DNA of 64,000 bases from positions 32,986,001 through 33,050,000 of the forward strand of contig CM059432.1 of NCBI GenBank assembly GCA_030390025.1, read 5' to 3'. Positions 10,257 through 54,951 of the stretch are shown one piece after another; positions within the stretch are counted from its first letter, which is position 1, and every line of letters starts with the position of its first letter. The stretch comes from Squalus acanthias. Its lineage: Eukaryota. Under the pieces are notes generated by a model. It was given only the letters and a program-made list of their open reading frames with translations, was not told the DNA's origin and did no database searches. The translations under genes were made by a program, and so were the position numbers.

Positions 10257-11178
10257 AGTGAAGAGATGCATATAGGCACAGCATATATAGTCAGAACACT
10301 GCCAGATGATTACAGTTAATCTTTCTAACTGCCCTTTATCACACCTCGGCAGAGAGATAATCACGGCAATCAAAGGTGTGGATGGTGTCCAAACAGGTCA
10401 GTCAGGAAAACATTACATCAAAGACAATGAGGTGGGGTCACAAGGGGTCAAATGTGTCAGATGCTGGGGTCTGTATGGAAAACAAAAGACTTTTTTTGCT
10501 GGAAATCACAGCAGGTCCGGCCGCATCTGTGTAGAGAGAACAAGCCAAGGACGACTCGAGTCTGGATGACTCTACGTCAGGTGGGGTTACATGTAGCGTG
10601 ACATGAACCCAAGATCCCGGTTGAGGCCGTCCTCATGGGTGCGGAACTTGGTTATCCGTTTCTGCTCGACGATTTTCCATTGTCGTGTGTCTCGAAGGCC
10701 GCCTTGGAGAAAGCTTACCCGAAGATCGGAGGCTGAACGTCCTTGACTGCTGAAGTGTTCCCCGACTGGGAGGGAACACTCCTGCCTGGCGATTGTTGCG
10801 CAGTGTCCGTTGATACGTTGTCGCAGTGTCTGCATGGTCTTGCCGATGTACCATGCTCCAGGGCATCCTTTCCTGCAACGTATGAGGTAGACAACGTTGG
10901 CCGAGTCACATGAGTATTTACCATGTGACGTAATAAAGACTCACTACGCACTTGAACATAAAGCAAGGCTTCAATCAACTTGTAACGAAACATGGAGGTC
11001 TAGTTAGCAGTCACTAGCTTCCTGTTTCCAGATTGTCTCTGCCCAAGGTGGGCCCATGCCAGAGTATTTATACTCCCTGGATGGCGCCCCAGCTGGCCGC
11101 CCAGTAGTACTTCCTGAGTTGTTACTTGCGATTTATGACATTCTTCCTCCCTAAAAGGTTTGGAAGTCCAGTCTTCCT

Positions 11179-13458
11179 TTAACGGACTAGGCGGACCAGA
11201 AATAGCCGCAGACGTTTAGCTCTCTGCTTGTGACTGGAAGGCACGTCTCCCGGGACCGTGTCCTGGTCCCTGGGTCGCTTGGCCCGTACCGGTAAGTCAG
11301 TAGAGTCCGCGTCATCTTGATCATCCTGTGGAGGACTGGGAATATCATGACTCCGGGTGCGGGTCCCCACAGGTGCTGAGCTGGCCTCATCCCGGGTCGT
11401 GGCTGGAGATTGTCCGGCGTCCTGGTTTCGGGTGGCCATCCTATGGGGAGCGTCCAGCTCCCTGAGTTGATCCGGTAGCGTTGCCGGCAGATCCCCCGAT
11501 GTCCCAGGCGGGGCGTCATTTTCATAGGGGTGCGGAGTGTTGATATCATTGTCGGGGGATCCTTCATCATTCGGGCCCGTGTGACCGGTTGGGCAGGGAG
11601 CCAGATCTCGGAGCGAGATGGTGGTCTCCCGGCCATCAGGGTACCGTACGTGCGCATACGTGGGGTTTATCTCCGTTAACTCCACCTCGTCAACGAGAGG
11701 GTCGTTTTTGGCAGACCGGACGAACCTCCGGAGTAGCACCGGGCCTGGAGCCACCAACCATGACGGTAGAGACGTCCCATGTGTAGAGCGATGCCGGAAT
11801 TTGAAGAATCGCTCATGAGGCGTGACATTGGTAGATGTGGAGAGAAGAGACCTGATAGAGTGTAACGCGTCGGGGAGCACCGTTTCCCACTGCTGGTCCG
11901 GCAGGTTGCGTGACCTTAGTGCCAGACGGACAGCGTTCCAGATGATGGCATTGTATCGTTCAACCTGTCCGTTACCGATTGGGTGATATGGTGTCGTCTT
12001 ACTTGAGGCGATTCCCCGTTGGGAGAGAGAACTTTTAAGTTCACTCGACATAAAGGAGGGACCCCGATCAGTGTGGATAAAATTGGCCGTCCCGCAAAGG
12101 GAAAAGACCTGATCGAGGCATTTAATTACCGTAGAGGTAAGCATATTAGGGCAGGGGAAGGCGAAGGGAAAGCGTGAATACTCGTCCACCATCGTAAGTA
12201 GGTAGGTGTTCCTTGTCGATGAAGGCAATGGCCCTTTAAAGTCTATGCTGAGCCTCTGCATAGGCTGCATTGCATGTATGAGTAAGCCATCTGATGGGCG
12301 AAAGAATTGTGGTTTCAATTCTGCACAAATCCTACAGGAGGAGCATGTTTTCTTTACGTCCTCGGTTGAAAATGGTAGATTTTTGGAGCGCACAAAGTGC
12401 AACATGCGGGTCACACCAGGATGGCATAAGTCCATATGCAAATCCGCCAGAGTCGACGTTGACATTGAGGAGCAAAATGCCCGCGTGAAGGTATCTGGGG
12501 CCACGTTCTGTTTGCCGGGTCGGTAACAGATAGTATATCCAAAGGCAGCCAGCTCCATCCTCCAGAGTTGAATTTTATTATTTTTGATTTTCGTGCGCCT
12601 CCGGTTATCCAACATGAAGGCCACAGAGCGCTGGTCAGTTATAAGCGTAAAATGACGCCGAGCAAGAAAATGACCCCATTGGCGTACAGCCTCGATGATG
12701 GCCGTAGCCTCCTTCTCGACGGGGGGGTAATGGAGCTCGCTACCCTGCAAGGTTCTGGATAGGAATGCCACGGGTCGGCCACCTTGATTCAAGGTAGCGG
12801 AGATCGCCACCTCCGATGCATCGCATTCGACCACAAAAGGAAGATTTTCGTCAATGGAGCGAAGCGTGGCTTTCTCCAGCTGTCGTTTGAGGAGGTTGAA
12901 GGCAGAAATAGCCGTAGCTTCCAATGGAAAAGACTTCGCATGGAGCAGGGGCTGTATTTTATCGGAGAAGTGTGGTATCCATTTTGCGTAATAAGCAAAC
13001 ATGCCAAGTGCCCGACGAAGAGAGCCGAGGTTCGTCGGGGGAGGGAGCTCCTGAAGTGGACGAAGTCGCTCTGGGTCCGGTTTAATAACACCGTTGCCCA
13101 CCCAGTAGCCAAGAATGTTCACCGATGGCACCGACTTCACCGATTTGGATTCGTTTAACGTTAAGTGGCGATGGCGGAGTACGTCAAAAAATCTCTGAAG
13201 ATTGGCGTCATGCTCCTTTTGATCATGGCCGGCAATAGTGATATTGTCTAAATACGGAAAGGTATCCGTCAAGTTCTCTTGCCGGACTAGGCCATCCATG
13301 GCCCGTTGGAAGACGGCCACCCCATTGGTGACCCCGAATGGAAGGCGGCGAAACTGGAAAAGCCGACCATTGGCCTCAAAGGCCGTATACTTCTTGTCGG
13401 AGTCTTGCAGTGGCACCTGATGGTATGCACTTTTTAAATCGAAGGTCGAGAATACCTT
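11179..13458 (-). CDS. pol: Gypsy-A RT-RNase H-integrase part
   Basis: Resumes KVFSTFDLKSAY; YLDN; ECDASE; HHCC; IDFKGP..TDRG..QVERYN. Removing the insertion and one TSD copy gives a single open 1313-aa ORF. Confidence 0.93.
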   Translation of the reverse strand, partial: KVFSTFDLKSAYHQVPLQDSDKKYTAFEANGRLFQFRRLPFGVTNGVAVFQRAMDGLVRQENLTDTFPYLDNITIAGHDQKEHDANLQRFFDVLRHRHLTLNESKSVKSVPSVNILGYWVGNGVIKPDPERLRPLQELPPPTNLGSLRRALGMFAYYAKWIPHFSDKIQPLLHAKSFPLEATAISAFNLLKRQLEKATLRSIDENLPFVVECDASEVAISATLNQGGRPVAFLSRTLQGSELHYPPVEKEATAIIEAVRQWGHFLARRHFTLITDQRSVAFMLDNRRRTKIKNNKIQLWRMELAAFGYTICYRPGKQNVAPDTFTRAFCSSMSTSTLADLHMDLCHPGVTRMLHFVRSKNLPFSTEDVKKTCSSCRICAELKPQFFRPSDGLLIHAMQPMQRLSIDFKGPLPSSTRNTYLLTMVDEYSRFPFAFPCPNMLTSTVIKCLDQVFSLCGTANFIHTDRGPSFMSSELKSSLSQRGIASSKTTPYHPIGNGQVERYNAIIWNAVRLALRSRNLPDQQWETVLPDALHSIRSLLSTSTNVTPHERFFKFRHRSTHGTSLPSWLVAPGPVLLRRFVRSAKNDPLVDEVELTEINPTYAHVRYPDGRETTISLRDLAPCPTGHTGPNDEGSPDNDINTPHPYENDAPPGTSGDLPATLPDQLRELDAPHRMATRNQDAGQSPATTRDEASSAPVGTRTRSHDIPSPPQDDQDDADSTDLPVRAKRPRDQDTVPGDVPSSHKQRAKRLRLFLVRLVR

Positions 13459-13813
13459 GGGGTAGAAATTAGGTCGCGCCCCATTTGGGGCGCAAATATC
13501 GTCCGAGCGCAAATATTAGCGCCTGGTGCTAATTATCGGCACTGACAGGAAACTTCTTTTACCGCCCCGGGAGGTGAGTGGAGCGCTAAATTAGGCGCTG
13601 CACACCTCTCTTAAGGCGCAAAGGCCTAGGAGTGAGGCGCTACCTCAGCGCACGAGCGCAGCGCAGCTGCTGCCAGTTAGCAAGGGAACACGACACACTG
13701 GCGCCGGACACTTCTTAAAGCGGGGGGGGGCCACTTGCTCCCCAGCCACACCCTGCTCATTGCAGCCTTGAATCTCAGCCTGGAGAGACCTGTAATCCAT
13801 TTTGCTGCCAAGC

Positions 13814-15634
13814 ATGGAGAGGGTGAGAACGCGCTCATCGCTTCACCGAGCGGGCCTTGGATGCTCTGGTTGGCGCAGTGGAGCGCAGACGATGCATGCT
13901 GTTCCCGGAGAGTGGCAGGAGGCCTTTGCCACGCGAGTTCAGAAGAGTGTGGAGGGAGGTGGCTCAGAGCGTCTCCTCCAGGAGCATGGTGCCCAGGACC
14001 CATGTTCAGTGCCGCAAAAAGTTCAACGACCTCACTCGGGTCGTCAGGGTGAGTGGCTTTTTCTCAATACCTCTCCATCCCTCCATCTCAACCTCACTAT
14101 ATGGCCAGAGGGTCTTAAAACCCCAATGCACAACACTCATGCAACACCTATGGCCCTTTTATCAAACACACACACACATTCCACACTTTGCATACAGTAA
14201 GGGCTATTCACCTATGGGAGGCACATCAGGCAAGACCATGGCTGCATATTGTAAGGGCTATTCACCTATGGGAGGCACATCAGGCAAGACCATGGCTGTA
14301 TATTTACTCAGATGCTGTCCTTTTTCTTGCAAGCTAAGCTGGCTCATAATCGGAGACAGCAGCAACGGACGGGTGGAGGGCGGCTTCAGCTGCAACCCCT
14401 CAGCGATCTGGAGGAGCGCGTCCACAGGATTGTGGCAAGCCGGGTGATCGGTCCCGTCGCCACTGGGGACGCCGACCCCGTTGTGGACAGCAATGGTAAG
14501 GTCATCACCTTTTTGTCCTCTGTCCTTCCACTTGTCCCTCACAATACCAGCCTTTGACACTTTCAATCCAACTTGCTAACTCGCTGCACTTATTCCTCCC
14601 TTACTGCCACCCTGTCCTCACGCTAAAGCCACTCTTGTACCTCCCTGCTTTCAGATGGTGATTCACCAGCTGAGGAGACGGTCCCTGAAGCTGCCACTGG
14701 GAGTGATGCTGCAGCTGAGGAGGAAGAGGAAGCCGGAGCATCAGTGCCACCCTCTCCCGAGGAAGCCCATGGCCACACTGGGAACACGCCTTCCCCGGAG
14801 GGGAGCAGGGGGGAAGGGGCTGATGATGGTGAAGCTCCAGGACCCAGCGGGCTGCAGCAACGCCATGGGGGGGGGAGGGAAGAACGGGAGCCTTCTCCCC
14901 AGAGGGAGAGTATGCCAGACACTCCTACTGCAATGGACGCAGAGGAGGAGCGGCTGATTGCAGAAATGAACAGCCAGGCGGTGGGCATGCACACTGAGCT
15001 CATGGGTGCAGTGGGAAGGGTGCCCGAATGCATTGAGGCACTGGCAAGGAGTGTGGAGCACTTCGCTGTAGCACAGGCGGATGCCACACTAAAGCTTAGT
15101 GCTGCAATTCAGTCACTGGCTGCCAAGAACCCATCTTAGACTGCTCTCATGCAGACTCAGATTGAGGCCACGCGAGCACTGACTGCTGCCATCCTCGATG
15201 GTTCATGCACATGTCCCCGGGGCTGTCACCGCGCCGCAGCAGGCCAGCAATGTGTTCTCCGGCAAATTGCTCCGGATGCTGAAGTGCTGCCCCGTGGGAG
15301 TGCCAGTGTGTCGGGCGAGCAGGGAGTTGCTGGCCTCTCTCACGATGACAGCATTCCTGCTGCCAACACTGTCACTTCTCCACTGCACTTGCCACCGCCT
15401 GTAGGACAGACTGCTGCCGCCCATGCAGAGTTGGTGCAGTCTGCAGCCGGGCCCTCCAGGCCCAGAAGTGGTCGAGGCCGTCCTTCAGGGGCATCTGCAG
15501 TGTCAGGGTCTGACGAGCAGCAGCCTTCCACCAGCCTTGCTGCAGCCACTGAGGTCCCATTACGGAGGAGCAGTAGGGTTAGAAGGGGGGAAGTGCGCAA
15601 GGGAAGGAGATCACCCTCGAAGGGCAAAATGTAG
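13814..15634 (+). pseudogene. Harbinger-A1 Myb/SANT-like DNA-binding gene (3 exons, disrupted)
   Basis: WREVAQSV...QCRKKFNDL; donors GTGAGT at 14049 and GTAAG at ~14495. Relative to copy A2 it has a 2-nt deletion in exon 1, an altered exon-2 acceptor and a stop at 15137. Confidence 0.8.
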
Positions 15635-15928
15635 GAGGTGTGCCAAAATGCTGGTCATTTTTTTATTAAAGGCCGAGGTTCATGGCCCAACTTTTGTTTA
15701 GTGTTTTGGACATTATCTCCAGGTTGTGAGAACCAGTTATGTTATTGACTGTTTTTTTGTGTTTATTTCTATGAGTTTGTCATGAGGAATTGACACACAC
15801 AGAGTTTGTACAATAAATAAGTTTCTGTATTCAAAATATACATGGCTGGTGGTTGGAATTATTGGTGCCTTGGCCGGCTTAGGGGTTGCGTGCTGGGTTG
15901 ATTCGTGTTTGTAGCAATGGCAGGGGCC

Positions 15929-17087
15929 CTAGAAGCGGCTTGCTATTAGTCGTTGACGGACGGCCCTTGCAGTTTGACCATTGTGGGCCGCCCTCCTGCC
16001 TTGGTGCTGCTGCTGATCATCGTCCTCGTCCTGTTCCTCCTCTTCCTCCTCCTCCTCTTGTGGTGCTGCAAGGCCTGGTGGCATTGGCTGCGTCCTGAGG
16101 ATTGCCATGTTGTGCAACATGCAGCACACGACTACGAATTTCGAAACTTGCTCAGGCGAGTACTGCAGGGCTCCTCCGGAATGGTCCAGACAGCGGAATC
16201 GTTGTTTCAGCACGCCGATTGTGCGCTCAATAATGTTCCTGGTTGCTTGTTGGCTTTCCTGGTACCGCAGCTCAGCAGGGGTGTTTGGCGCACGGAGCGG
16301 TGTCATCAGCCAGGTGCTCAATGCGTACCCCTTGTCCCCCAGAAGCCAACCAACTGGCTGATGCGGTGCCTCAAAGTTCTGCCACAGTAGTCTGGCGCAG
16401 GATGAAAGCATCGTGGCAGCTGCCCGGATAGTGGGCATTGACAGCGAGAATCACCTGTCTGTGGTCACAGACCAACTGCACATTCAAGGAATGGAACCCC
16501 TTTCTGTTCCGGAACTCCTCTGCATTCTCTCGCGGAGCACGCAAAGCCACATGCGTGCAGTCAATGGCGCCCTGCACCATGGGGAAGCCCGCTACCCTCG
16601 CAAAGCCCATAGCACGGTTATGCTGCTTGTCTGGGGTCATAGGGAAAGAGATGAAGTCTCGTCTCCTTCTGAAGAGGGCATTGGTGACCTGCCGGATGCA
16701 GCGATGCACCGCAAACTGGGAGATATTGGCGAGGTCCCCAACAGCAGCTTGGAATGAGCCAGTGGCGTAGAAGTTCAAAGCCACTGTGACCTTCACTGCC
16801 ACCGACAGAGACGTCCTGGACCTCAGCTGAGGCTGCAGATCTGGCTGCAGCAGGTGGCAGAGCTCAGTGACCACCTCCTTGCTGAATCGCAGCCTTCGCA
16901 AACACAGCTCCTCGGACATATGGATGTAGGAGAGCTGTTCACGATATACCCTGGGAGGGTAAGCTCTCCTGTACATGCGCCTGATGGCCCTCCTCCGTCT
17001 GGCCATCATTGCCACTCTCTGTCTGCGTCTCACTATCCTCCGATTGAGCTGGAGCAGGACGACGCCCCCAATCAGTGCAGCCCCCAT
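15929..17087 (-). CDS. Harbinger-A1 DDE transposase (HARBI1-like), split by a frameshift at ~16371
   Basis: [57 protein letters not shown]. Confidence 0.9.
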
Positions 17088-17186
17088 ATTCTCTTTGCCA
17101 GAAAAGTAATGAGGTACAGCAACTAAAGTAGCAGCAAAGTTAGGATGAACTAGACCAAACTACCTCACAAAGCGTTGTCAATGTAG

Positions 17187-17189
<3 letters not shown>

Positions 17190-17232
<43 letters not shown>

Positions 17233-17460
17233 ATCTCAATCTCAATCTCAATCTCAATCTCAATCTCAATCTCTCTCTCAATCTCTCTCTCTCCGAATCT
17301 CTCTCTCCGAATCTCTCTCTCCGAATCTCTCTCCGAATCTCTCTCTCTCTCTCTCTCAATCTCTCAATCTCTCTCTCTCTCAATCTCTCTCTCTCTCAAT
17401 CTCTCTCTCTCTCAATCTCTCTCTCTCTCAATCTCTCTCTCTCTCAATCTCTCTCTCTCT

Positions 17461-17514
<54 letters not shown>
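17190..17514. repeat. Compound (CT)n/(CAATCT)n microsatellite
   Basis: Directly visible. Confidence 0.98.
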
Positions 17515-17517
<3 letters not shown>

Positions 17518-17888
17518 AACGAGTGGTGCATAAATGTCGACCACAGAAAAAGACAGGAAGAGGCCCCCTTTAAATAGCGCCCCCCCCAGCCCCACACCGA
17601 TTGATAACGTTCCAGTCTTCCGGTCGTTGGAAGCGCCAGGCGGTAAGGCAGGGGGCGCCACTCAATTTCCGCTCCGGGGCACCCCAAGGGCGTTGCACCA
17701 TGGAATGACGTCACAATCTGCGCGCGCAGGTGTTCGCAGCGGTAAGTTTTAGCGCCGCCGCACAATCTCAAGTTAAGTTCTCGAGCGGCGCAAACAGCGC
17801 TGCGCCCGGGCGTTAGCGCCTTAACGCCCCATTAGCGCCCTCTTAAGGCGCTAACGGGAGGCGCAACCAACTGAATTTTTCCCCCCTT

Positions 17889-19550
17889 GTATTTGGCAAG
17901 GTTGTTGACCATGTCATCTATGCGTGGCAGCGGGTAGGCATCCAGATTGGTATATAGATTAATAGTCTGCGAATAATCGATACACAGACGTTTTTTATGT
18001 TGTTTTAAGGGATTATTCACGATGACGACCTGAGCCCGCCAGGGAGATGAACATGGCTCGATAATACCGTCGACTAAAAGGCGAGAGATTTCCGCCTCAA
18101 TAAACGCTCGATCATCTTGGCTAAAGCGCCGCGATTTGGTGGCTATGGGTTTACAGCGGGGGGGAAGATTGGCAAACAGGGAGGGTTCACCGAGTAAGGC
18201 CGCCGAGAGTGCACAAAACGGCACCTTAGAAATAGTAAGCTCCGGCCTTGACCCTCCAAACTCAAAAGTGATCTTCTTGTGCTGCTTCTGGAAGTCCTGT
18301 CCCAGAAGCACATCGCTGCATAAGTTTGCGAGTACTCCGAGCCGGGTGGAGAGATACGTGCAGCCGTTGAGGATGAGGTTGACCAGACAGAAGCCAGAAG
18401 AATTGGTGGTCAGAGTCGTCAGAGCCATTGCAATCTCCCTGTCCGAGGGATAAATGTGCAGTTTTAACCTGTTGACAGCCCGCTTACTAATGAAGCTGTC
18501 AGAGCTGCAGGAGTCGATTAGTGCGCTTAGAGTGTGCCCATTTACTGAAACCTTCGTGGCTGCATGGGACAAACTTTGGGGAAAAACAGCCGTGATGGGA
18601 GGAGGGGCAATTTTCCCTTCGGCAACTGTAGCCTTGACAGTAGTTCTTGGGGGAGGAGCAGCTCCATAGATAGCAGCTGTGAAGCTAACAGGAGCTCTCG
18701 ACCGGTATACTTTAGAGGAGCGGCCTTTCTTGTTAGCAAAGGCCCGTGACTGGCATACCTTGGAAAAGTGTCCTTTCTTGCTGCAATTATTGCAGGTCAC
18801 ATTACGAGCCGGGCAAAATTTTCTGTGATGGCACGCCCCTCCACAAAAGAAACACTTTCTTCCTGATTGCCAGGATGCTGCTAGGGCGGGGTAGTCATCA
18901 GCGAAGGCCTCTAGGGTAGGGTCGTCATCTGTTAGAGTAGAGTCAACATCAGTGGGGGCATCCGCCCGAGACCTACCGAAAGACTCATTAAAGGAGATAG
19001 CCGCCGCCCGTGCACGTGGTGGGAGATAAGTGTCTGCATTTTTCTTGGCCAAGTCCAAGGAACACGCCTGGTCATAAGCAGCCCGTAAATTGAGGGTTTT
19101 ATTTTCCAGCAGGCGCTGACGTATAAAAGGGGACGCGATTCCATTGATAAAGGAATCGCGGATTAGTTCCTCTTGATACTGTTCAGCTGAAACTGCTTTA
19201 AGGTTACAATCCTTGCCGAGCCTGCGAAGTTTCTGGAGAAATTCATCGAGTGATTCCCCAGGCTGCTGCCGAGTTGTGGCCAGTAGGTGTCGAGCAAAGA
19301 TTTCATTTGGGGACTTGACATATAGCTGCTGTAAGATTTCGATAGCAGCGTCATAGTCTATACAGTCCTCAATATAATCATACACATGAGGAGACACGTA
19401 GTTGATAAGCATTCGTAACTTATTAGGGACATCCGCCCCACATTCTTCAAGAAAGTTGCTAAAGGTACGAAACCAATGCTTCCATACCTTTGCTGCCGCA
19501 GGTGCATTCGGGTCCAGGTCGAGACGAGCGGGTCTAAGGAGTTTTTCCAT
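17889..19550 (-). CDS. gag-pol: Gypsy-A gag-protease-RT N-terminal part
   Basis: Two Cys/His knuckles (CFFCGGACHHRKFC, CNNCSKKGHFSKVC); LIDSCS protease; RLCIDYSQ...YPLPRIDD; cut at NLAKYK by the Harbinger. Confidence 0.93.
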
Positions 19551-22500
19551 GATGGATCAGTTTCTTGCCCAAGTTCCCTTCTGTGGTTCGAGTTGCAGCT
19601 GGTTGTTCCGAATCACCCAAAGCGTGGAGACGATATCAAGTTGATTAAATTGACGTAATAAAGACTCACTACGCACTTGAACATAAAGCAAGGCTTCAAT
19701 CAACTTGTAACGAAACATGGAGGTCTAGTTAGCAGTCACTAGCTTCCTGTTTCCAGATTGTCTCTGCCCAAGGTGGGCCCATGCCAGAGTATTTATACTC
19801 CCTGGATGGCGCCCCAGCTGGCCGCCCAGTAGTACTTCCTGAGTTGTTACTTGCGATTTATGACACCATGTACCTGGTGGGTGGTGTCCTCGTGTGATGA
19901 TGGTATCTGTGTTGATGATCTGGCATGTCTTGCAGAGGTTGCCGTGGCAGGATTGTGTGGTGTCATGGTCGCTGTTCTCCTGAAAGCTGGGTAATTTGCT
20001 GCGAACGATGGTCTGTTTGAGGTTAGGCGGCTGTTTGAAGGCGAGTAGTGGAGGCGTGGGGATGGCCTTAGCGAGGTGTTTGTCGTCATCGATGACATGT
20101 TGAAGGCTGCGACGAACATGGCGTAGTTTCTCTGCTCCGGGGAAGTACTGGACGACGTAGGGTACTCTGTTGGTTGTGTCCTGTGTTTGTCTTCTGAGGA
20201 GGTCTATGCTATTTTTCGCTGTGGCCCGTCGGAACTGTCGATCGACGAGTCGAGCGTCATATCCCGTTCTTACGAGGGCATCTTTCAGCGTCTGTAGGTG
20301 TCCATCGCGTTCCTCCTCGTCTGAGCAGATCCTGTGTATTCGCAGGGCTTGTCCATAAGGGATGGCTTCTTTAACGTGGTTAGGGTGGAAGCTGGAGAAG
20401 TGGAGCATCGTGAGGTTGTCCGTGGGCTTGCGGTAGAGTGAAGTGTTGAGGTGTCAGTCTTTGATGGAGGTTCGTGTCTCCAAGAATAAAACCAATTCTG
20501 AGGAGTAGTCCATGGTGAGTTTGATGGTGGGATGGAACTTGTTGATGTTATCGTGTAGTCTTTTCAGTGATTCTTCGCCGTGGGTCTATAGGAAGAAAAT
20601 GTCGTCGATGTATCTGGTTTATAGCGTTGGTTGGAGGTCCTGTGCAGCGAAGAAGTCTTGCTCGAACTTGTGCATGAAGATGTTGGCGTATTGGGGTGCG
20701 AATTTGGTCCCCATGGCTGTTCCGTGTATTTGGGTAAAAAACTGGTTGCCGAAGGTGAAGACATTGTGGTCAAGGATGAAGCGGATGAGTTGTAGGATGG
20801 TGTCTGGAGATTGGCTGTTGTTGGTGTTGAGTACTGAGGCTGTCGCAGCGATGCCGTCATCGTGGGGGATACTGGTGTAGAGTGCCGAGACGTCCATCGT
20901 GGCAAGGAGTGTTCCTGGTTCAACTGGTCCGTGGGTGCTGAGTTTCTGTAAGAAGTCTGTAGTGTTGCGACAGAAGCTAGGGGTTCCCTGTACGATGGGT
21001 TTCAGGATGCCCTCGACGTATCCAGAGAGGTTCTCACACAGGGTTCCATTGCCTGATACAATAGGATGTCCGGGTGTGTTGGCTTTGTGTATCTTTGGGA
21101 GGCAGTAGAAGTCTCCCACGCGGGGAGTACGTGAGATGAGAGCGCGTAGGATGCTTTGAAGGTCTGGATCGAAGGTCTTGATCAGTCTATTGAGTTGGCG
21201 GGTGTGTTCTTTGGTCGGATCTGCGGGTAACTGTCTGTAGTGTTCCTGGTTGTCCAGTTGTCGGTATGCTTCTTTGCAATAGTCCATTCTGTTCTGTATG
21301 ACGGTGGCTCATCCTTTGTCCACTGGTTTGATGACTGTTGCGGTTGGTCTTGAGAGCGTGGATGGCGTTGCGTTGTGCTCGGGTGACATTCTGGACTGTC
21401 TTGTGAGTGCGGCTGATGAATCTGGCGTTGATGCATCTCCTGACAGCTTGAACATACATGTCAAGCTTAGGGCAGCGACCCTCCGGAGGGATCCAATTTG
21501 ACTCTTCTTCGGTTGCTGCACTGCGGGTCCCTCTGTCTGCTGTTCCGGATCATTGATTGTCTCATTGGGTTCGCTGCTGACATGTTGGGATTCATGGAAG
21601 AATTCCCGGAGCCTCATTCTCCTGATGAATTCCTCTGTCTGCCGCGAGACCGATGGGATCCATTTTGGTGGTGGGGCAGAAATTGAGCCCTCAGCTGAGA
21701 ACTTCGATTTCGTCTGGTTGAAGGGTGTGGTCGGACAAGTTGACGATGGACTTCCCTGTGGTTGCAACCGTGGTACCGGTGGAGGCTTGGTTGCTGCTGG
21801 TGGTGATGCCGAGTTTCTCAAGCTTCCTGTTCTTGGTGTGCATGTAGGCAGCGTAGTTCTGTTGCCTCGTCTATTTGGCGGTGTCTCATAGCTGGTCTGT
21901 GTCCTGAGCATAGGCTGAGAACATCGACTCTATCTTGGTTTCGAGGTTGCGGCGTCTGCTGTAGAGCTGGTGTACGAGATGGTTGAGGAGTGTGCGAGAG
22001 GTACGACAGCAGAGTCTCTCAGCGTCGTCTGTGTTGTATGTCGACTTGACTGGGTTCGTGATCTGTAGTCCTTTTGGGATCTTGTCTGCTTTCTTGCATC
22101 TCTGTAGAAACTTGATGTCTGTGTCGATATGCGCAATCTAAAATAGCCTGCTCCCTGGTTGGTTCCACAACGTATTGTTCTAAGAAACCATCCTGAATAC
22201 ACTATGAACTCTTCCTCAAGGCTACCTTTGCCAATTTGATTTGTCCAATCTATATAAAGATTAAAATCGCCCATGATTATTGCAGTACCTTTCTTATAAG
22301 CCTCCATTATTTCTTGATTTATACTCTGTCCTACAGTGTAGCCACTGGCCCCCTACCATTGACTTCTTTCCTTTTATTATTTCTTACCTCCACCCAGACT
22401 GATTCTACATCTTGATCTTCTGAGCCAATTTCATTTCTCACGACTGCACTGATCTCATCCTTTATTAACAGAGCTACCCCACCTCTTTCCTTTCTGCCTA

Positions 22501-32537: not shown

Positions 32538-35500
32538 GGGCTCGATTTTAATAGCCCTTTGGAGGCCGGTCTGTTGGGAAAATCAGGGGGGAAAAAAGGC
32601 TTCAGACACCCATCCTGCCCCCACCCGATTTTTGAGAGTTTCTGTTCAGCTGCTCCCAAACTGGCCCGACTGGAATCGGTGGGACAGGTAGTTAAGGCAG
32701 TTAACAGCCTGTTAACTGCCTTGCAAATCCTATTTTCATGCTTCTGGCTCCTGTTGCCTGACCTTGTCAGAAACAGGCCAGGTTCAAGGAGACGAGTTGC
32801 TGGAGGACATGATTTGTATTCATTGGTGGAGCGCTTTGAAAGCGCCCCTGAAACATGGCTGACATTCTGTTGCAACAACTATGCTGTTGTGTGTATGGGA
32901 TAAGATTTTGCATATCTACTGACCTTGTGACTGTTCAAGCTGACACCCATCTGCAGTGTGACCGGAATGGAATAATTTCAGGCCACTTCGACTGTGCGCT
33001 TGCAAGATTGCTGCCTCAAATGAAATCTATAGCAAGGAGGTGGGAAATATTTATGCCCTCTCATCCTGGTCCTCATAATCCGAGGAGCAGCAGCCGCGTG
33101 GCTCAGTGCAGATCTTCCTGGGAAGAGGAGCAGGAGGAGGACGAGAGGCGCCTTGCATACCCTGTTGTGACCAATGCAGCATTTCTTCAGTTCACTGCTG
33201 CCTGTCAAGCAGGGTATGCACACTGCCATGCCACATTAGCATAAGCTTACTCTTCAACCATAGGTGGCCACCATATGGTTCTGTAATTGCAGCCAACATC
33301 TATCCAATGTCATACTTCATCTCTGATATACCCGGTTATTTCCTGTCACTTTCACCATCAGTACAAAAGCAAGTCGCCCTGAGTCCTCAATGCGCTTTTG
33401 CCATTTCCCAGAACACACAGGCCACACAATCAAATGTTTGCCATTATTTTTCTTTTACACGTGACAAAAGGATAGTAAACCACCAGTCAGAAAAAAAGAC
33501 AAAACACCCAAATGAGTCCCCTTGTGAGTGTAGGTGCTTAATCTTTCTCTTGCGCGTGCTTCTACGTGGTGCTTCCCTGTGGCTTCAGCAGATGTAGAGG
33601 CACCTTGCTGACTAGGATGCTGTGCCCTTTGGCGGGTGTCCTCTGGGTTTGGGAGCCTGGGAGGGCTCTTCAACAGTCTGCTGTTCCTGTGCAGGGGCTG
33701 AAATGGCCATCTCAGTTGTCTCCGCAAAGTGGGTCTCTGACCGAGGGCTCTTCAGTGGCATGGTCATGTGAGCGTTTTGAGAGGAGCCCACACTTCCTTC
33801 AATCCTGCCAACAACATCCCTCTTCTGGGTCAGCCCACCTCAGTGCTGGCAAGTGGCTGGAGAGCACCTTGCTGCACATCAGGGGGACCATGAGGCCCCG
33901 TATCTGCACTGGCAGTCCTCATCACAAGGATGTCCATGAAGCTCTGGTCTCTCTGCTCTATAGCTGCCCATCGTTCCTCCTGAGATGACATTCTATTTTG
34001 AACAGTCACCATGTGTTCCTGACTCTGGCGACTTATTTCCTCCATGGCGGTAGCCATCCTATCCATGGAGGTGCGTTCATGCGCCATTTCCTCCACCACA
34101 GCAGTGCTGATGTTAGAGGTGGACTCCTCCATTCTATCCACACTCTCTCTAACCCTGGAGGCAAACCCTTCCAGAGACTCCTGCACTTGTTCCTGTATTT
34201 CCCGAACCGCTCTCTTTCTGGCTGGCCCCAGAGGCACAGTGACGTAAGAAAATTACTAGGCACTTGGTCTAAGCGTTAAACAAAGCTTTAATCAACTGTT
34301 TTTCAACATGGCGATCTAGTTGTGTCCTTCACTAGTTCCTGTTGAGGAATGTCCTAAGCAAGCTGGGCCCATGCCCGAGTATTTATACTCTCCCTGGACA
34401 GCGTCACCAGCAGGCCGCCCAGTATTACTTCATACATGAATGACGAGATTCATGTCACACAGCGTCTGCATGCAGCTCAGCAGAGGTAGTAGGAGAGTCC
34501 TGCGACTTCTGCCGAGGACTCCACTGCTGTCGCTGTCTCCACCATCTGCTGATGCTCACTTGTGCGCTGTGATAGACCAGATGGCAACACTAATCTAACT
34601 CGCGAGGGCCCCACTGAGGTGTGCGTTGGTGCGCTGAGTCCTGGTGACGCTACTCCCACAGAGGCTTCAGGTTCTTCTGAGGAGTTGTCTGGGTCAGGGA
34701 TGGGGGTGGGGGGACACTCGATGGTCCTGTGGGAGAGTAAAGGCATAATTTAGACTTCTGATATTGATATAGCAGACACATCCTTTTGAGCAGATGATGC
34801 AATGCGATTATCTATGAACATCATATGCCATTGCAGTCTGAGGCATGAAACTCTGTCACCAACTTCCTCTAGTGTGCCCATCTCTCCATCGCCCACTTCC
34901 AGGTCCTCACCACCTCCAACAATCTCGTTTGCTGCCTCCTCAGCACTCAGCACTGGTCAATGTTGCTAGGGTAGGTGTTCCTCCTCCAGTCATTGCTCTT
35001 TCCCTCTTATTGTGAGCTATCTTTTCCTGCAAGGAGGGACACAAGCGGTGTTTCAGCCCCAGTGATGGAGTGAGTGTGAATAATCCCTACCATAGAAGCT
35101 TTGAGGGAGACGAAGATGGGGGTAAGGTGCCAAGAGGAAGCTCGCTCCCTGTGTTGTTAATTGTTGTCACTGCATGACAGAGTCTCTAAGGGGTGCATAA
35201 GCAGGATGCTGAAGTCATTCAGTGCAGAGACAGAGATGGATAGGTAAGGGTGCAAGGTAAAAAGGTGAGGTGGGATGTGGAGGAGCAGGCTTACAACGCA
35301 GTGTGCTGGTGATAAGAGAAGGGAAGCAGATTGAAGGCAAGTGTGATGGGATACTCACTTTTGGTGTTCACACAAGATCATTGAACCTTCGGCACCGGAT
35401 CCATGAGCATGTACATATGGACCTTGCGCTCACCTCCTGAGCAATGCGCAGCCAGGCTGCCTTGGTCTGCTGAGGAGGTTTCCTCCGGCCATCAGGAGGT

Positions 35501-37355: not shown

Positions 37356-37714
37356 GGGGGAAAAATTAGGTCGCGCCCCATTTGGGGCGCAAATATCGTC
37401 TGGACGCAAATATTAGCGCCTGGCGCTAATTATCGCCACTGACTGGAAACTTCACTTTTACCGCCCCGGGAGGTGAGTGGAGCGCTAAATCAGGCACTGC
37501 ACACCTGTCTTAAGGCGCAAAGGCCGAGCAGTGAGGCGCTAACTCAGCGCGCGAGCGCAGCGCAACTGCTGCCAGTTAGCGAGGGAACACAGACACACTG
37601 GCGCCGGCCACTTCTTAAAGCGGGGGGGGCCAACTTGCTCCCCAGCCACACCCTGCTCATTGCAGCCTTGAATCTCGGCCTGGAGAGACCTGTGAATCCA
37701 TTTTGCTGCCAAGG

Positions 37715-39514
37715 ATGGAGAGGGTGAGAGAACGAGCTCATCGCTTCACCGAGCGGGCCTCGGATGCTCTGGTTGGCGCGGTGGAGCGCAGAAGATGTAT
37801 GCTGTTCCCTGAGAGTGGCAGGAGGCCTTTGCCACGCGAGTTCAGAAGAGTGTGGAGGGAGCTGGCTCAGAGCGTCTCCTCCAGGAGCATGGTGCCCAGG
37901 ACCCATGTTCAATGCAGCAAAAAGTTCAACGACCTCACTCGGGTCGTCAGGGTGAGTGGCTTTTTCTCAATACCTCTCCATCCCTCCATCTCAACCTCAC
38001 TCTATGGCCAGAGGGTCTTAAAACCCCAATGCACAACACTCATCCAACACCTATGGCCCTTTCATCAAACACACACACACATTCCAGACTTTGCATACAG
38101 TAAGGGCTATTCACCTATGGGAGGCACATCAGGCAAGACCATGGCTGCATACAGTAAGGGCTATTCACCTATGGGAGGCACATCAGGCAAGACCATGGCT
38201 GTATATTTACTCAGATGCTGTCCTTTTTCTTACAGGCCAAGCTGGCGCATAATCGGAGACAGCAGCAACGGACAGGTGGAGGGCGGCCTCAGCTGCAACC
38301 CCTCAGCGATCTTGAGCGCATCCACAGGATTGTGGCAAGCCGGGTGATCGGTCCCGTCGCCACTGGAGACGCCGACCCCGTTGTGGACAGCAATGGTAAG
38401 GTCATCACCTTTTTGTCCTCTGTCCTTCCACTTGTCCCTCACAACACCAGCCTTTGACACTTTCAATCCAACTTGCTAACTCGCTGCACTTATTCCTCCC
38501 TTACTGCCACCCTGTCCTCACGCTAAAGCCACTCTTGTACCTCCCTGCTTTCAGATGGTGATTCACCAGCTGAGGAGACGGGCCCTGAAGCTGCCACTGG
38601 GAGTGAAGCTGCAGCCGAGGAGGAAGAGGAAGCCGGAGCATCAGTGCCACCCTCTCCCGAGGAAGCCCATGCCCACACTGGGAACACGCCTTCCCTGGAG
38701 GGGAGCAGGGGGGAAGGGTCTGATGAGGGTGAAGCTCCAGGACCCAGCGGGCTGCAGCAACGCCATGGGGGTAGGGAAGAACGGGGGCCTTCTCCCCAGA
38801 GGGAGAGTATGCCAGACACTCCTACTGCAATGGACGCAGAGGAGGAGCGGCTGATTGCAGAAATGAACACCCAGGCGGTGGGCATGCACACTGAGCTCAT
38901 GGGTGCAGTGGGAAGGGTGCCCGAATGCATTGAGTCACTGGCAAGGAGTGTGGAGCACTTCGCTGTAGCACAGGTGGATGCCACACTAACGCTTAGTGCT
39001 GCAATTCAGTCACTGGCTGCCGTGATCCCATCTCTGACTGCTCTCATGCAGACTCAGATTGAGGCCACGCGAGCACAGACTGCTGTCAACCTCGATGGTT
39101 CGTGCACATGTCCCCGGGGCTGTCACCGCGCCGCAGCAGGCCAGCAATCTGTTCTCCGGCAGATTGCTCCGGATGCTGAAGTGCTGCCCCGTGGGAGTGC
39201 CAGTGTGTCGGGCGAGCAGGGAGTTGCTGTCCTCTCTCACGATGACAGAATTCCTGCTGCCAACACTGTCACTTCTCCACTGCACTTGCCACCGCCTGTA
39301 GGACAGACTGCTGCCGCCCATGCAGAGTTGGTGCAGTCTGCAGCCGGGCCCTCCAGGCCCAGAACTGGTCGAGGCCGTCCTTCAGGGGCATCTGCAGTGT
39401 CAGGGTCTGACGAGCAGCAGCCTTCCACCAGCCTTGCTGCAGCCACTGAGGTCCCATTACGGAGGAGCAGTAGGGTTAGAAGGGGGGAAGTGCGCAAGGG
39501 AAGGAGATCACCCT
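37715..39514 (+). CDS. Harbinger-A2 Myb/SANT-like gene (3 exons; extreme C-terminus interrupted by Gypsy-B)
   Basis: MERVRERAHRF...WRELAQSV..QCSKKFNDL; GT-AG introns; long open last exon. Confidence 0.75.
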
Positions 39515-42500
39515 TGTCGTAAGAATGAGCCTTACGCGTGGTGAACTTAAAGTAAGCTTTAATCAACTAAAAAGGTGCTCCATACAAAAGAGGTCTTACT
39601 CTATGCCTCTCCAGGATCCAACTGATCAGCCCAGTATTTATCCTGGACTAATCACAGGAAGTGATGTAATAAAGTTCGAGTCACAGGAAGCTGTATTGTG
39701 TTACCACATTCTCCCTCCATTTCGTAGCCGCTGGACGAGGGAGAGTCGCACCCGTTTGGGTTCTCGTAGCGGTAGAGGGCCCCTAGCCCGTTTACCCGCC
39801 GCGGGCCGTGGACCAGAGTCCGAGTGATCCAGCCCGCTCTGTGAGGGGTCAGGACGATCCTGACTGTGTACTGGTGCCCGAACGGGTGTCGGGCAGGGCT
39901 GTGGCAGATCCGTTTCCGAGCGTATGGTACGGGGTGGATCGTGGCTGCGCGTGCGAGTCCCGATGGGCTCATCGTCAGTCTGCCCCAGGTCGGCACGCTG
40001 GAGTGAGGTACCAGCCGGCGTCAGATCCAGATCGTGATGAGAGGCACCTGGCGAGCCCAGAGATGTGCCTGGTACAATATCATCCCCTGGTGTCCCTCTA
40101 TGTTTCGGCGGGCAGGGAGCCAGATCCCGCAATGACACGGTAGATTCCCGACCGTCAGGATACCGAATATAGGCGTAGGTAGGGTTGACGTCAGTGAGCT
40201 CAACCTCATCTACCAGGGGGTCATTCTTAGACGCCCGAACATATCTTCGGAGTAGCACTGGTCCCGGTGCAGTCAGCCATGACGGGAGAGATATCCCATA
40301 GGATGAGCGACGCTGAAAACGGAAGAACCGTTCATGAGGCGTCGTATTTGTGGCGGTCGAAAGGAGGGACCGTGTGGAGTGTAATGCGTCTGGAAGTACT
40401 GCTTCCCATTGCTGGTTGGGTAGGCCCCGAGATCTCAAAGCCAGACGTAACGCATTCCAGATGATAGCGTTAAAACGCTCGACTTGCCCATTCCCGACCG
40501 GATGATAAGGCGTCGTTCTGCTGGCAGCAATACCCCGTTCCGAGAGATAGGCCTTGAGTTCTCCTGACATAAAAGAAGGGCCCCGATCCGAATGAACATA
40601 GGATGCCATGCCACAGAAAGCAAATACCTGCTCAAGGCAGCTGATAACCGTGGTCGTCAGCATATTGGGGCAGGGAAAGGCAAATGGAAAATGGGAATAC
40701 TCATCGACCATGGTCAATAGATAAGTGTTGCGAGTTGAAGAGGGCAACGGCCCCTTAAAATCGATGCTAAGCCGTTGCATTGGCTGGGTCGCATGTATGA
40801 GTATACCACCCGAGGGGCGGAAAAACTGAGGTTTCAATTCCGCACAGACTCTGCAGTCCGAGCACATCTTCTTTACATCCCCGGTAGAGAATGGGAGATT
40901 TCGGGACCGCACGAAGTGTAGCATGCGAGTAACGCCCGGATGACACAACCCATCATGGATGTCTACGAGCGTAGAGGGTGCCATGGCGGAGCAGAATGCT
41001 CGTGTGAGGGTATCCGGAGCCACATTCTCCTTGCCAGGTCGATAGTGGATGGTGTAACCAAAAGAGGCCAATTCCAGCCGCCAAAGCTGGATTTTATTAT
41101 TTTTAATTTTGGTCCGTTTTCGATTATCGAGCATGAAGGCGACCGATCGCTGGTCCGTGATTAAGGTAAAGTGCTGGCGAGCTAGGAGATGACTCCACTT
41201 CCGTACTGCCTCTATGATGGCTGTAGCTTCTTTCTCGACTGGAGGATAATGTAGCTCAGCCCCTTGAAAAGTCCTGGACAAAAATGCCACCGGACGACCT
41301 TCCTGATTCAGAGTGGCCGAGATCGCCACCTCCGAGGCATCACACTCAACAACAAAAGGAAGACTCTCATCGATGGAGTGAAGAGCCGCTTTCTCCAACT
41401 GTTTTTTCAGGAGGTTAAAGGCTGCAACAGCCGCTGTGTCTAGTGGGAATGTGCTGGCCTTCAGTAGAGGTTGGATTCGGTCCGAGAAGTTAGGAATCCA
41501 TTTAGCATAGTATGCAAACAGGCCGAGGGCCCGGCGCAAGGAGGCCGGATTCTTAGGTGGCGGGAGTTCTTGGAGTGGGCGAAGCCTTTCAGGGTCAGGT
41601 TTAATGATGCCATTGCCCACACAATAGCCAAGGATGTTGATGGTTGGTTGTGACTCAATGGATTTAGCCGCATTTAATGTCAAATTACGGTGCTGGAGTG
41701 CATCCCAAAATCGTTGGAGATTGGCGTCATGTTCCCGCTGATTGCGACCTGCGACAGTAATATTGTCCAGATAAGGAAACGTATCCTTCAAGTCTTCCTG
41801 TTTGACCAGGTCATCCATTGCTCGCTGGAAGACAGCCACTCCATTAGTGACCCCAAAGGGGAGGCGACGAAATTGATACAGCCGTCCATTGGCTTCAAAG
41901 GCCGTATACTGCTTGTCTGAGACCTTCAAGGGTACCTGATGATAGGCACTTTTCAGATCATATGTTGAGAACACCGTGTACTCAGCCAGTTTATTAACCA
42001 TATCATCGATGCGCGGCAATGGGTATGCGTCCAAGTCCGTATATTGATTGATGGTCTGTGAATAGTCAATGCACAGCCGTTTCTTGTGAGGTTGTAGAGG
42101 GTTCTTAACAATAATGACCTGGGCGCGCCATGGCGACGAACAAGGCTCGATGATATCCTCTGCTAGAAGCCGAGAAATCTCAGCCGCAATAAAAGACTGG
42201 TCTTCCTGACTGAAACGTCGTGACTGTGTTATAATCGGTTTGCATCGAGGAGGGATACTGGTAAACAGTGAGGGTTCATCCAGTGAAGCTGCTGACAATG
42301 CACAGAACGGTAATCGAGGTCGTATATTAGAAATAGTGAGTTCAGGTTTGGATCCGCCGAACTCAATGGTGAGCTTCTTATGCTGCTTTTGAAAATCCAG
42401 CCCTCAGATAAGATCACTACATAAGTCCTTGAGCACCGAAAGCCGGGTGAAGGGATACCTGTGACCATTAAGTGTTATTTCAACCATACAAAAGCCAGAA

Positions 42501-43922
42501 ATTCTGGTATTAAGTGATGACTGAGCCATCGCAATTGCCTGGTCCGATGGGAAAACATGTAGCTTTAACTCTGCAACAATCTGTTCCCTAATGAAACTAT
42601 CAGTGCTACCTGAGTCAATTAAGGCATCTAAAGTATGTCCATTAATTGATGCTTTTGTAGCTGCATGGAATAGGTTCTGAGGACAAGCAGCTGTAATTGG
42701 TGGTGGTGCACAAAGAGTGGCTGAAACTCTAGGTGTGTTTCTTCGAGAGAAAACCCGAGAGGAAGCACGATAGATTTTAGCCGGAACATCTTGATAGGCC
42801 CGTACCGGGGCAGTTCGGTAGGACTTAGCTTGATAAGCCCTCGTAGAGGCTCTTGATAGGCAAACTTTTGCAAAATGACCCTTTTTGTTGCAATGACTGC
42901 AAAACGCATTGTGAGCAGGGCAGAATTTCCGAGGGTGAAACTCATCACCACAAAAGAAGCATTTCTTAGATTGCCAAGAGGCTGCCACAGTGGGGTCATC
43001 ATCCTCTTCATCAGTGAAGTCATTAGATTGATCGTCGGGGATAAAGTCCTCCTAATAGAGTTCACCTGTGGCCTCTTAAATTGCCTGACTGTAGTTAAGG
43101 CAGCAGACCGAGGTCTGGGCACTGTATAAAGGTCTGCATTTCTTTTTGCCAGATCTAGAGAGCAAGCCATGTCATAAGCTCTCTGAAGCTCAAGTGTCTT
43201 ACTTTCCAGTAGACGCTGGCGTATAAATGGGGAGGCAAGCCCGCAGATGAAAGCATCATGGATCATTTCTTCACGGTACAGCTCAGCTGAGGCCGCCTGA
43301 AAGTTACAGTCCATACTAAGTCTGCGAAGCTCTTGGAGGAATTTATCAATGGATTCCTCCGGCCCTTGTTGGGCTGCAGCTAGTAGATGTCTGGCATAGA
43401 CCTCATTCGGTGTCTTAGTATATAGTCTTTTAAGCGTCCGAATTGCCTTCTCGTAACTGCCCCATTCCTCGACATACTGAAATACATTCGGGGTGACACA
43501 GTTGATGAGTATCCGCAATTTTGAGTCATCATCAGCCTTGCAATATTCGAGAAAATTGTCAAACGTGCGATACCAGTGTTTCCACACCTTACCGGCTGCT
43601 GGGGTGTTTGGGTCCAAGTCAAGACGCGATGGTTTAAGGATGTTTTCCATGATGGGTGATTCCCTGGATCCTTAGTTCCGAGTTCGTCCAAAAAGTTTGA
43701 GTGCGAAGTTTTTCAAAGTTGATTAAATTGTCGTAAGAATGAGCCTTACGCGTGGTGAACTTAAAGTAAGCTTTAATCAACTAAAAAGGTGCTACATACA
43801 AAAGAGGTCTTACTCTATGCCTCTCCAGGATCCAACTGATCAGCCCAGTATTTATCCTGGACTAATCACAGGAAGTGATGTAATAAAGTTTGAGTCACAG
43901 GAAGCTGTATTGTGTTACCACA
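39515..43922 (-). mobile_element. Gypsy-B: full-length Ty3/Gypsy element, same lineage as Gypsy-A
   Basis: 194-bp LTRs (39515-39708, 43729-43922) differing at 2 positions; TSD ACCCT. Confidence 0.97.
39701..43650 (-). pseudogene. gag-pol: Gypsy-B gag-pol (frameshift near 43050, stop at 42404; RT-RNase H-IN open for 865 aa)
   Basis: MENILKPSRLDLDPN, CSHCNKKGHFAKVC, LIDSGS, YLDN, IDFKGP. Confidence 0.92.
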
Positions 43923-44236
43923 ACCCTCGAAGGGCAAAAAGTAGGAGGTGTGACCAAATGCTGGTCATTTTTTTATTAAAGGTCGAGATTCATGGTCCAA
44001 CTTTTGTTTAGTGTTTTGGACATTATCTACAGGTTGTGAGAACCAGTTATGTTATTGACTTTTTTTGTGTTTATTTCTATGAGTTTGTCATGAGGAATTG
44101 ACACACACACAGTTTGAAAAATAAATAAGTTTCTGTATTCAAAATATACATGGCTGGTGGTTGGAATTATTGGTGCCTTGGCCGGCTTAGGGGTTGCGTG
44201 CTGGGTTGATTAATGTTGGTAGCAATGGCAGGGGCC

Positions 44237-45398
44237 CTAGAAGCGGCTTGCTATTAGCCGTTGACGGACGGCCCTTGCAGTTTGACCATTGTGGGCCGCC
44301 CTCCCGCCTTGGTGCTGCTGATGATCATCGTCCTCGTCCTCTTCCTCCTCTTCTTCCTCCTCCTCCTCTGGTGGTGCTACAAGGCCTGGTGGCATTGGCT
44401 TGGTCCTGAGGATTGCCATGTTGTGCAACATGCAGCACACGACTACAAAGTTCGATACTTGCTCAGGCGAGTACTGCAGGGCTCCTCCGGAATGGTCCAG
44501 ACAGCGGAACCGTTGTTTCAGCACGCCGATTGTGCGCTCAATAATGTTCCTGGTTGCTTGATGGCTTTCATTGTACCGCAGCTCAGCAGGGGTGTTTGGC
44601 GTACGGAGCGGTGTCATCAGCCAGGTGCTCAATGCGTACCCCTTGTCCCCCAGAAGCCAACCAACTGGCTGATGCGGTGCCTCAAAGTTCTGCCACAGTA
44701 GTCTGGCGCAGGATAAAAGCAGCGTGGCAGCTGCCAGGATAGTGGGCATTGACGGCGAGTATCAGCTGTCTGTGGTCACAGACCAACTGGACATTCAAGG
44801 AATGGAACCCCTTTCTGTTCCTGAATTCCTCTGCATTCTCACGCAGAGCACGCAAAGCCACATGCGTGCAGTCAATGGCGCCCTGCACCATGGGGAAGCC
44901 CGCTACCCTCGCAAAGCCCAGAGCGCGGTCACGCTGCTCGTCTGGGGTCATAGGGAAAGAGATGAACTCTCGTCTCCTTCTGAAGAGGGCATTTGTGACC
45001 TGCCGGATGCAGCGATGCACCGCGAACTGGGAGATATTGGCGAGGTCCCCAACAGCAGCTTGGAATGAGCCAGTGGCGTAGAAGTTCAAAGCCACTGTGA
45101 CCTTCACTGCCACCGACAGAGACGTCCTGGACCTCAGTTGAGGCTGCAGATCTGGCTGCAGCAGGTGGCAGAGCTCAGTGACCACCTCCTTGCTGAATCG
45201 CAGCCTTCGCAAACACAGCTCCTCGGACATATGGATGTCGGAGAGCTGTTCACGATATACCCTGGGAGGGTAAGCTCTCCTGTACATGCGCCTGATGGCC
45301 CTCCTCCGTCTGGCCATCATTGCCACTCTCTCTCTGCGTCTCTGTATCCTCCGATTCAGCTGGAGCAGGACGACGCCCCCAATCAGTGCAGCCCCCAT
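44237..45398 (-). CDS. Harbinger-A2 transposase, same frameshift as A1 (~44682)
   Basis: Same motifs as A1; PGSCHD changed to PGSCHA. Confidence 0.88.
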
Positions 45399-45498
45399 AT
45401 TCTCTTTGCAAGAAAAGTAATGAGGGACAGCAACTAAAGTAGCAACAAAGTTAGGATGAATAGGCAAAACTACCTCACAAAGCGTTGAGTCAATGTAG

Positions 45499-45559
<61 letters not shown>

Positions 45560-46028
45560 AACGAGTGGTGCATAAATGTCGACCACAGAAAAAGACAGGA
45601 AGAGGCCCCCTTTAAATAGCGCCCCCCCCAGCCCCACAGCGATTGATAGCGTTCCAGTCTTCCGGTCGTTGGAAGCGCCAGACGGTAAGGCAGGGGGCGC
45701 CACTCAATTTCCGCTCCGGGGCGCCCCAAGGGCGTTGCACCATGGAATGACGTCATAATCTGCGCGCGCAGGTGGTCGCAGCGGTAAGTTTTAGCGCCGC
45801 CGCACAATCTCTAGTTAAGTTCTCGAGCGGCGCAAACATCGCTGCGCCCGGGCGTTAGCGGCTTTGCGCCCCATTAGCGCCCTCTTAAGGCGCTAACGGG
45901 AGGCGCAACCAACTGAATTTTTACCCCGTAGAGTTCCAAACTTAATTACAGTTTCTAAGAAAAATCACGATCGATTACAACACTTCCGAGGCGCACGTGG
46001 AAAACGGGAGTGACGCCATTTTGTCTGT

Positions 46029-49370: not shown

Positions 49371-49375
49371 ATCTC

Positions 49376-54947: not shown

Positions 54948-54951
54948 TTTC

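Follow-up and report, generated by a model that had tools for sequence, protein, structure and literature searches.

How a Gypsy retrotransposon begins reverse transcription when the position of its primer-binding site (PBS) can base-pair with its own LTR is the question raised by a locus in Squalus acanthias (contig CM059432.1), analysed here in a window of 64,000 nucleotides whose own positions are used throughout. On the minus strand of this window, the 5' LTR of a Gypsy element, element A, closes in CA, followed by a single spacer base (A, 19650) and then by the PBS-position sequence TTTAATCAACTTG (19649-19637); inspection of the junction found no TGG after the LTR. This 13-mer pairs with 19707-19695 inside the LTR, the predicted self-primer arm, through 12 Watson-Crick pairs and one G-U, and 13 bp was reached by none of 2000 dinucleotide shuffles of the LTR, among which the maximum was 11. 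The reading of the junction made in an earlier note on this DNA, that a tRNA PBS is missing and that 19637-19649 pairs with 19695-19707 over 13 bp with one G-U, is thereby confirmed. The clade to which element A belongs probably primes reverse transcription in the manner of Tf1, using its own LTR arm once a cut, predicted to fall at the 3' edge of that arm (19695/19694 in element A), has been made.

Element A is a minus-strand Ty3/Gypsy element in which LTRs with a target duplication (5 bp, CATGG), the order gag-PR-RT-RH-IN and a polypurine tract (PPT) are all present, and its closest match in the PDB is Ty3 Gag-Pol (E 2.6e-42). The 5' LTR (19651-19865, TG...CA, 215 bp) is 100% identical to the 3' LTR (10926-11140). 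Within the former lie a TATA box (19790-19797), with a predicted start site near 19765; the arm, whose 3' hexamer occupies the position of the poly(A) signal in relatives, a feature absent from the earlier note; and the 44 nt from arm to LTR end (19651-19694), which comprise the rest of R and U5 and open with a conserved RCC(T) motif. A single frame (17886-19550) encodes Gag with two CCHC fingers, protease and the start of RT, the remainder of RT with a YLDN motif, RNase H and an integrase lacking a chromodomain follow at 11179-13458, and the PPT, with a T run before it, lies at 11141-11152, all on the minus strand. A 4.4-kb Harbinger-type DNA transposon with DDE_Tnp_4 matches (13459-17885) splits RT, so that this copy of the element is broken. 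The transposon has a 96% identical copy elsewhere in the window (37356-45927), and the nesting is reciprocal, as the first transposon sits inside element A and a second Gypsy element, element B, sits inside the other copy. Element A itself interrupts an RT-bearing element, presumably Penelope-like. The window also holds a retrovirus-like element at about 46030-55100 on the minus strand, with a zinc knuckle, a retroviral-type protease, RT, an RNase H-like domain, a second RNase H, integrase and SH3, followed by an 835-aa ORF with no Pfam match.

The duplex of element A is present in both the MFE and the centroid folds, with a mean pair probability of 0.91, and the folding energy of the whole region is more favourable than that of shuffles by a modest margin only (z -1.84). 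Contigs from three related runs carry a Watson-Crick partner at the G-U position, and the wobble therefore looks private to this copy as far as these sequences go. The TATA region of element A (19769-19800) is common to a second, more deeply covered LTR family in related runs. Element B, 65-73% identical to element A over the coding region, has the same arrangement, with an arm at 43772-43782 and a PBS at 43717-43727 (span 43717-43782, minus strand) joined by 11 Watson-Crick pairs; its LTRs lie at 43729-43922 and 39515-39708 on the same strand, and its duplex was matched by none of 2000 shuffles when only Watson-Crick pairs were counted and by one of 2000 when one G-U was allowed. A solo LTR of a related family (34240-34457, minus strand, flanked by CTGTG) has kept both the TATA box and the arm (34287-34297). 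Its target duplication is intact, and in related runs a segment of this LTR matches a family that is covered far more deeply.

Relatives were gathered by way of Gag, with an alignment of 43 sequences (41 of the 120 matches listed, together with elements A and B) that retrieved the best 80 of 185 metagenome loci. Junctions were called from the motif CA-A-T-(T/C), pairing being used only to choose among several candidates, a rule that leaves out TGG starts by design and places the share of tRNA-type relatives outside the tally; in 19 loci the junction so called lies no more than 4 nt from where the 3' LTR match ends. A junction was readable in 69 of the 80 loci, and 52 of these 69 pair with their own LTR over at least 11 bp, while in 12 of the 17 that do not pass the arm at its expected place still forms 11 or more of the 13 pairs. 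Clustering at 80% identity yielded 36 families, elements A and B included, of which 28 have a passing member (at least 11 bp). The eight non-passing families, L006 and L008 among them, mostly have no readable 5' end (L058/L059, L072 and L073 lack a recognisable leader); pairing is imperfect in L066 and L076, and the failure of L002 is unexplained. A 14-bp self-pairing was read by eye in the tail of the L008 contig, where PPT and LTR run directly into PBS and leader, as in a collapsed assembly or a one-LTR circle. In a later set of seven further loci, one of which (L081) is close to L001 and hence not independent, all five with a 5' end pair over 13-17 bp, one of them with a T spacer. The complementarity between the PBS and the arm of the same LTR is real and clade-wide. 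One Gag relative (L006:1-122) has TGG directly after CA-A, its LTR being cut off, and may belong to this Gag group as a member primed by a tRNA. Source names among the matches listed include crustaceans, cnidarians, a gastropod and a sea cucumber. A further relative, P0077, is named from Penaeus majanivirus, a possible vehicle for horizontal transfer, and no relatives of the element were found in the viral sequence collection. The Gag relatives of the later set (L081-L087) lie on contigs filed in bacterial MAGs, probably as contamination by host DNA.

Covariation was assessed in 32 representatives drawn from the passing set, in which pairing at positions 1-11 is thus built in. They carry 27 different 11-mers, and the pairing run has a median of 14 against the own LTR and of 4 across families, where 28 of 992 cross pairs reach 11. 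Outside the 11-bp cut-off, position 12 pairs in 97% and position 13 in 88% (31% and 48% across families), positions 14-16 pair in 56-69%, and background is reached from position 17 on; duplex length in the clade is 12-16 bp and shows no correlation with GC content (rho -0.10, p 0.59). On a rough Gag tree, parsimony counts about 74 joint changes at positions 1-13. Pairing with the own LTR thus covaries across families, which is the check that had been proposed for the family alignment. Within families, the coding sequence of L041 is 98.5-99.2% identical to that of eight siblings, and one arm base is altered in both of its LTRs together with a complementary change in the PBS, as primer copying predicts. 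This is the single double-compensatory case, about a dozen other within-family differences being one-sided, and with some 12 one-sided changes, 1% divergence and one base in three, about 0.04 such cases would be expected by chance, as estimated by hand. In the leaders of L032 and L043, pairing runs on past a one-base bulge with a compensatory change, which suggests selection on RNA structure beyond simple copying. PBS position 14 of the L044 family has two alleles, one of which extends the duplex to 20 bp, and each occurs on both coding haplotypes; as support for re-templating these alleles were set aside, since recombination fits as well.

A different primer has to be weighed against these sites, namely a 5' tRNA fragment cut in the D-arm and held through G-U pairing, for which the LTR arm would be a mimic or a relic. 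The D-arm 11-mer that the earlier note had named as a potential refutation does pair fully with the PBS of element A (nine Watson-Crick pairs and two G-U), so that element A alone leaves this alternative standing. Full pairing extends to nine of the 32 representatives, with one or two mismatches in most others, and the common arm looks like a D-loop with GC after it, a likeness that is real and may stem from the AG step and the poly(A) hexamer or may be a relic of an ancestral tRNA fragment; half-tRNA priming is in addition described for Copia lineages (PMC6317226). However, the other 23 PBSs do not pair fully with the motif (up to five mismatches) and yet pair with their own LTR. If a tRNA primer were copied, its Gs should come to face a fixed C, whereas 31 of 32 PBSs have T at position 2, and pairing at positions 12-13 tracks the LTR with all four pair types. 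In a comparison that took in this one D-arm motif, a fixed tRNA primer does not explain the covarying sites, and a D-arm fragment is very unlikely to be the primer. ARAGORN found no tRNA genes in the 64-kb window. The interpretation in the earlier note is supported as regards tRNA-independent self-pairing, which is backed by covariation, by the later loci and by the double change in L041, and from which we infer priming.

The positions of arm and PBS follow a fixed geometry, in which the CA of the LTR is followed by one spacer base and the PBS, and the arm by RCC(T) and usually a hairpin. C stands at +2 after the arm in all 32 representatives, and a hairpin of at least 4 bp directly follows the arm in 24 (shuffle mean 7.3, maximum 14), element A scoring 2 bp and thus failing the strict version of this test. 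The loop from arm to LTR end ranges from 23 to 71 nt across the representatives, and the fixed points are therefore the 3' edge of the arm and the 5' edge of the PBS, where the 3' end of a primer must lie. Given the complementarity, this geometry and the covariation, a self-priming step is likely, and a model can be constructed for it. The model proposes a fold of the leader in which arm and PBS are paired, a duplex to which folding assigns a cis probability of 0.87-0.99 in all 32 leaders. The RNA would next be cut between arm and RC step, probably by the element's own RNase H as in Tf1, to free a 3'-OH, from which RT would copy the loop of 23-71 nt (in element A, the predicted template 19651-19694) into minus-strand strong-stop DNA, and this DNA would jump to the 3' end, onto the short piece of R that is left there between arm and poly(A) site. 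Plus-strand synthesis would then copy the primer back into the PBS and so keep both complementary; Tf1 is described as copying its primer into PBS DNA, with PBS sequence copied at the 3' end of about half of the cDNA (PMC11042837). As a poly(A) hexamer usually closes the arm, the arm-PBS duplex would also mask the signal of the 5' LTR, leaving that of the 3' LTR freer.

An alternate scenario would supply the primer in trans, either as the 3'-LTR arm on a co-packaged genome or as a short LTR transcript trimmed to the hexamer. The same covariation and re-templating would result, folding predicts a more open arm in the 3' copy, and the scenario fits the "processed LTR-derived 3' end" of the earlier note. 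However, the predicted cis duplex would occupy the PBS first, and a molecule cut in its 3' copy would be expected to lose the R on which its strand transfer depends; a primer in trans is rated very unlikely. Less credit still is given to a chance inverted repeat or a self-cleaving ribozyme. The region is AT-rich, and a multi-stem junction with few fixed bases is ribozyme-like; however, chance is excluded by the shuffles, the cross-family controls and the later loci, and no Rfam match was found up to E 5. Ribozyme cuts, moreover, leave a cyclic phosphate that RT cannot extend, which counts against the ribozyme reading, and both explanations are considered extremely improbable.

Self-priming from the arm in cis could proceed from either of two transcript starts, which appear about equally probable: at or just before the arm, the geometry of Tf1, or some 58 nt upstream, driven by the TATA box, with an internal or trimmed primer. 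In the three LTR families of the window, the TATA box lies upstream of the arm by 90 nt in element A, 88 nt in the solo LTR and 72-74 nt in element B; the distance of about 85 nt given previously for element A holds when counted from the end of the box, whereas from its start it is 90 nt. These TATA boxes, a pyrimidine-purine (YR) step about 31 nt past them in the LTRs of element A, the solo copy and element B, and the occurrence of that segment in more than one LTR family of related runs count for a long leader, and from the sequence it is plausible that in element A the arm does not form the first bases of the transcript, as had been suggested. Among the 32 representatives no fixed TATA-to-arm distance was found, the invertebrate relatives having no constant one; a TATA-like box occurs within 130 nt in ten (at -29 to -128, several upstream regions being incomplete), and about 30 nt upstream of the arm in only two. 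In 27 of 32, position 11 or 12 of the arm holds a YR step; positions 12-13 nevertheless covary, so that the RNA must reach at least that far, which argues against a start exactly at the A of the conserved T-T-N-A-G-Y pattern there. This pattern, which we take to resemble the arthropod initiator, favours a start at the arm, as do the inconstant TATA distance in relatives and the sharp boundary at 12-16 bp, which is what run-off copying of a short primer would produce. A long primer driven by the TATA box would require a stop or a trimming step ahead of plus-strand transfer, which counts against that version. A YY1-like CCATNTT motif is present in only three of 32. The contigs of L009 and L046 begin within one base of the arm start, a post hoc observation to which no weight is attached. 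The single raw RNA run (X16) gave no reads on the stretch, the other three runs being contigs. Alternative start sites of Tf2 are described as including or omitting the self-primer (PMC5341516), and both types of start could thus coexist here.

It is possible, though rather doubtful, that the lineage evolved self-priming independently of Tf1/sushi with an internal primer. The transcript would then start about 60 nt upstream, and an arm of 12-16 nt, flanked by a U run like a polypurine tract and containing the poly(A) signal, would be cut out of the leader, the duplex acting as a switch that prevents premature polyadenylation at the 5' LTR and also provides the primer. The likeness between arm and PPT (a T run, then 12-13 nt) is loose, as the AG varies in position among 26 PPT candidates, a few of them perhaps miscalled. 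The conserved AG was also considered as a splice acceptor, a reading abandoned because the pairing extends into the unspliced pyrimidine run.

The overlap with the poly(A) signal allows a further reading, in which masking of the signal in the 5' LTR is all that the duplex does and priming proceeds by other means. ATTAAA and AATAAA are poly(A) signals, and the arm ends in one of them in 20 of the 32 representatives (ATTAAA in 13, AATAAA in seven); in folding, the unpaired probability of the hexamer has a median of 0.04 in the 5' context and of 0.52 in the 3' context, as such occlusion would have it, with a value of only 0.19 in the 3' context for element A. However, the remaining 12 arms end in other hexamers, and in three families (L022, L033 and L064) with a non-canonical arm hexamer the canonical one lies downstream, outside the duplex, so that occlusion is not the whole reason for the pairing. 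Neither would it explain a partner site placed one base after the LTR, the missing tRNA site or the double change in L041. Hiding of the signal as the sole function is judged decidedly unlikely, and on these folding predictions poly(A) occlusion is a frequent by-product or second role of the duplex.

Should self-priming by the arm hold, tRNA-free priming would have arisen again in a separate and abundant clade of animal elements outside the chromoviruses, with a different RNA architecture that is tied to the poly(A) signal. To our knowledge, Tf1 is the only element for which self-priming is proven; elsewhere it is regarded as a mark of the Tf1/sushi chromoviruses and of one plant Copia lineage. 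In the openly accessible literature searched, no report of it in the present clade was found; an earlier one in Repbase, GyDB, subscription journals, bioRxiv supplements or two supplements of PMC6238403 is quite possible. Elements of this kind would be expected to escape control by 3' tRNA fragments, and annotation based on tRNAs would score them as having no PBS. The natural variants of arm and PBS would in turn be material at hand for studying which features of an RNA duplex are recognised by RNase H.

Among systems already described, Tcn1 (Gypsy) and TAR/Houba/Osr-1 (Copia) of plants are predicted self-primers under a rule by which an LTR segment of at least 10 nt is complementary to sequence 0-5 nt after the 5' LTR (PMC6317226). 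Element A falls under the same rule, with 13 bp beginning at +2; however, the plant elements belong to other lineages and hosts, and the part of PMC6317226 available for comparison does not mention an overlap with the poly(A) signal for them. With the Mag cluster (Mag, SPM, DRM, SURL and Steamer) the element has in common two CCHC fingers, integrase after RNase H, the lack of a chromodomain and of env, a GxV-type motif after the integrase core, short LTRs, a single gag-pol frame and aquatic-animal hosts, and its LTR-end motifs resemble those given for Mag A and Mag C (PMC3601003). The marker states fit a Mag-like element, although they are not exclusive to Mag, as Cigr-1 likewise has two CCHC fingers and no chromodomain (PMC2774666 supplement 3). 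Unlike Steamer, a member of the Mag C-clade for which a tRNA-Leu PBS beginning with TGG is reported (PMC8905726), the present clade lacks such a site. The resemblance in priming is to Tf1/Tf2 of S. pombe, Tj1, Tosmo and the Tf1/sushi chromoviruses, in which the PBS is likewise complementary to the own LTR with no tRNA site and the duplex, of about 11-13 bp, adjoins the LTR end; in Tf1 the first 11 bases are described as pairing and RNase H as cutting between bases 11 and 12 (PMC7175516). However, the present clade has two CCHC fingers (found in element A, and in strict form in 51 of 82 sequences) where Tf1 has none and sushi one (PMC2774666 supplement 3). It also lacks a chromodomain, the C-terminal 260 aa of element A and 266 aa of element B having matched no Pfam family at E up to 1, and most members carry a YLDN catalytic motif, of which no mention was found in the literature and supplements searched. 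The three-duplex pretzel described around the PBS in Tf1/sushi (bioRxiv 2022.12.06.519325) has its place taken here by the local hairpin after the arm: pretzel-type duplexes are not enriched (leader-U5 run 6.06 within elements and 5.95 across them), nor is a stem at the LTR end (8 of 32, shuffle mean 9.75). In further contrast to Tf1/sushi, the arm overlaps the poly(A) hexamer and pairing spans 12-16 bp, and the TATA box lies 72-90 nt upstream of the arm in the LTRs of this host, compared with about 30 nt in Tf1. Chromoviruses are reported to be absent in cnidarians, crustaceans, molluscs and echinoderms (PMC2774666), groups from which relatives of the present element are named. Because the pretzel, chromodomain and finger-count tests fail, the element is, by its sequence features, not a member of Tf1/sushi, and it would nonetheless work like Tf1.
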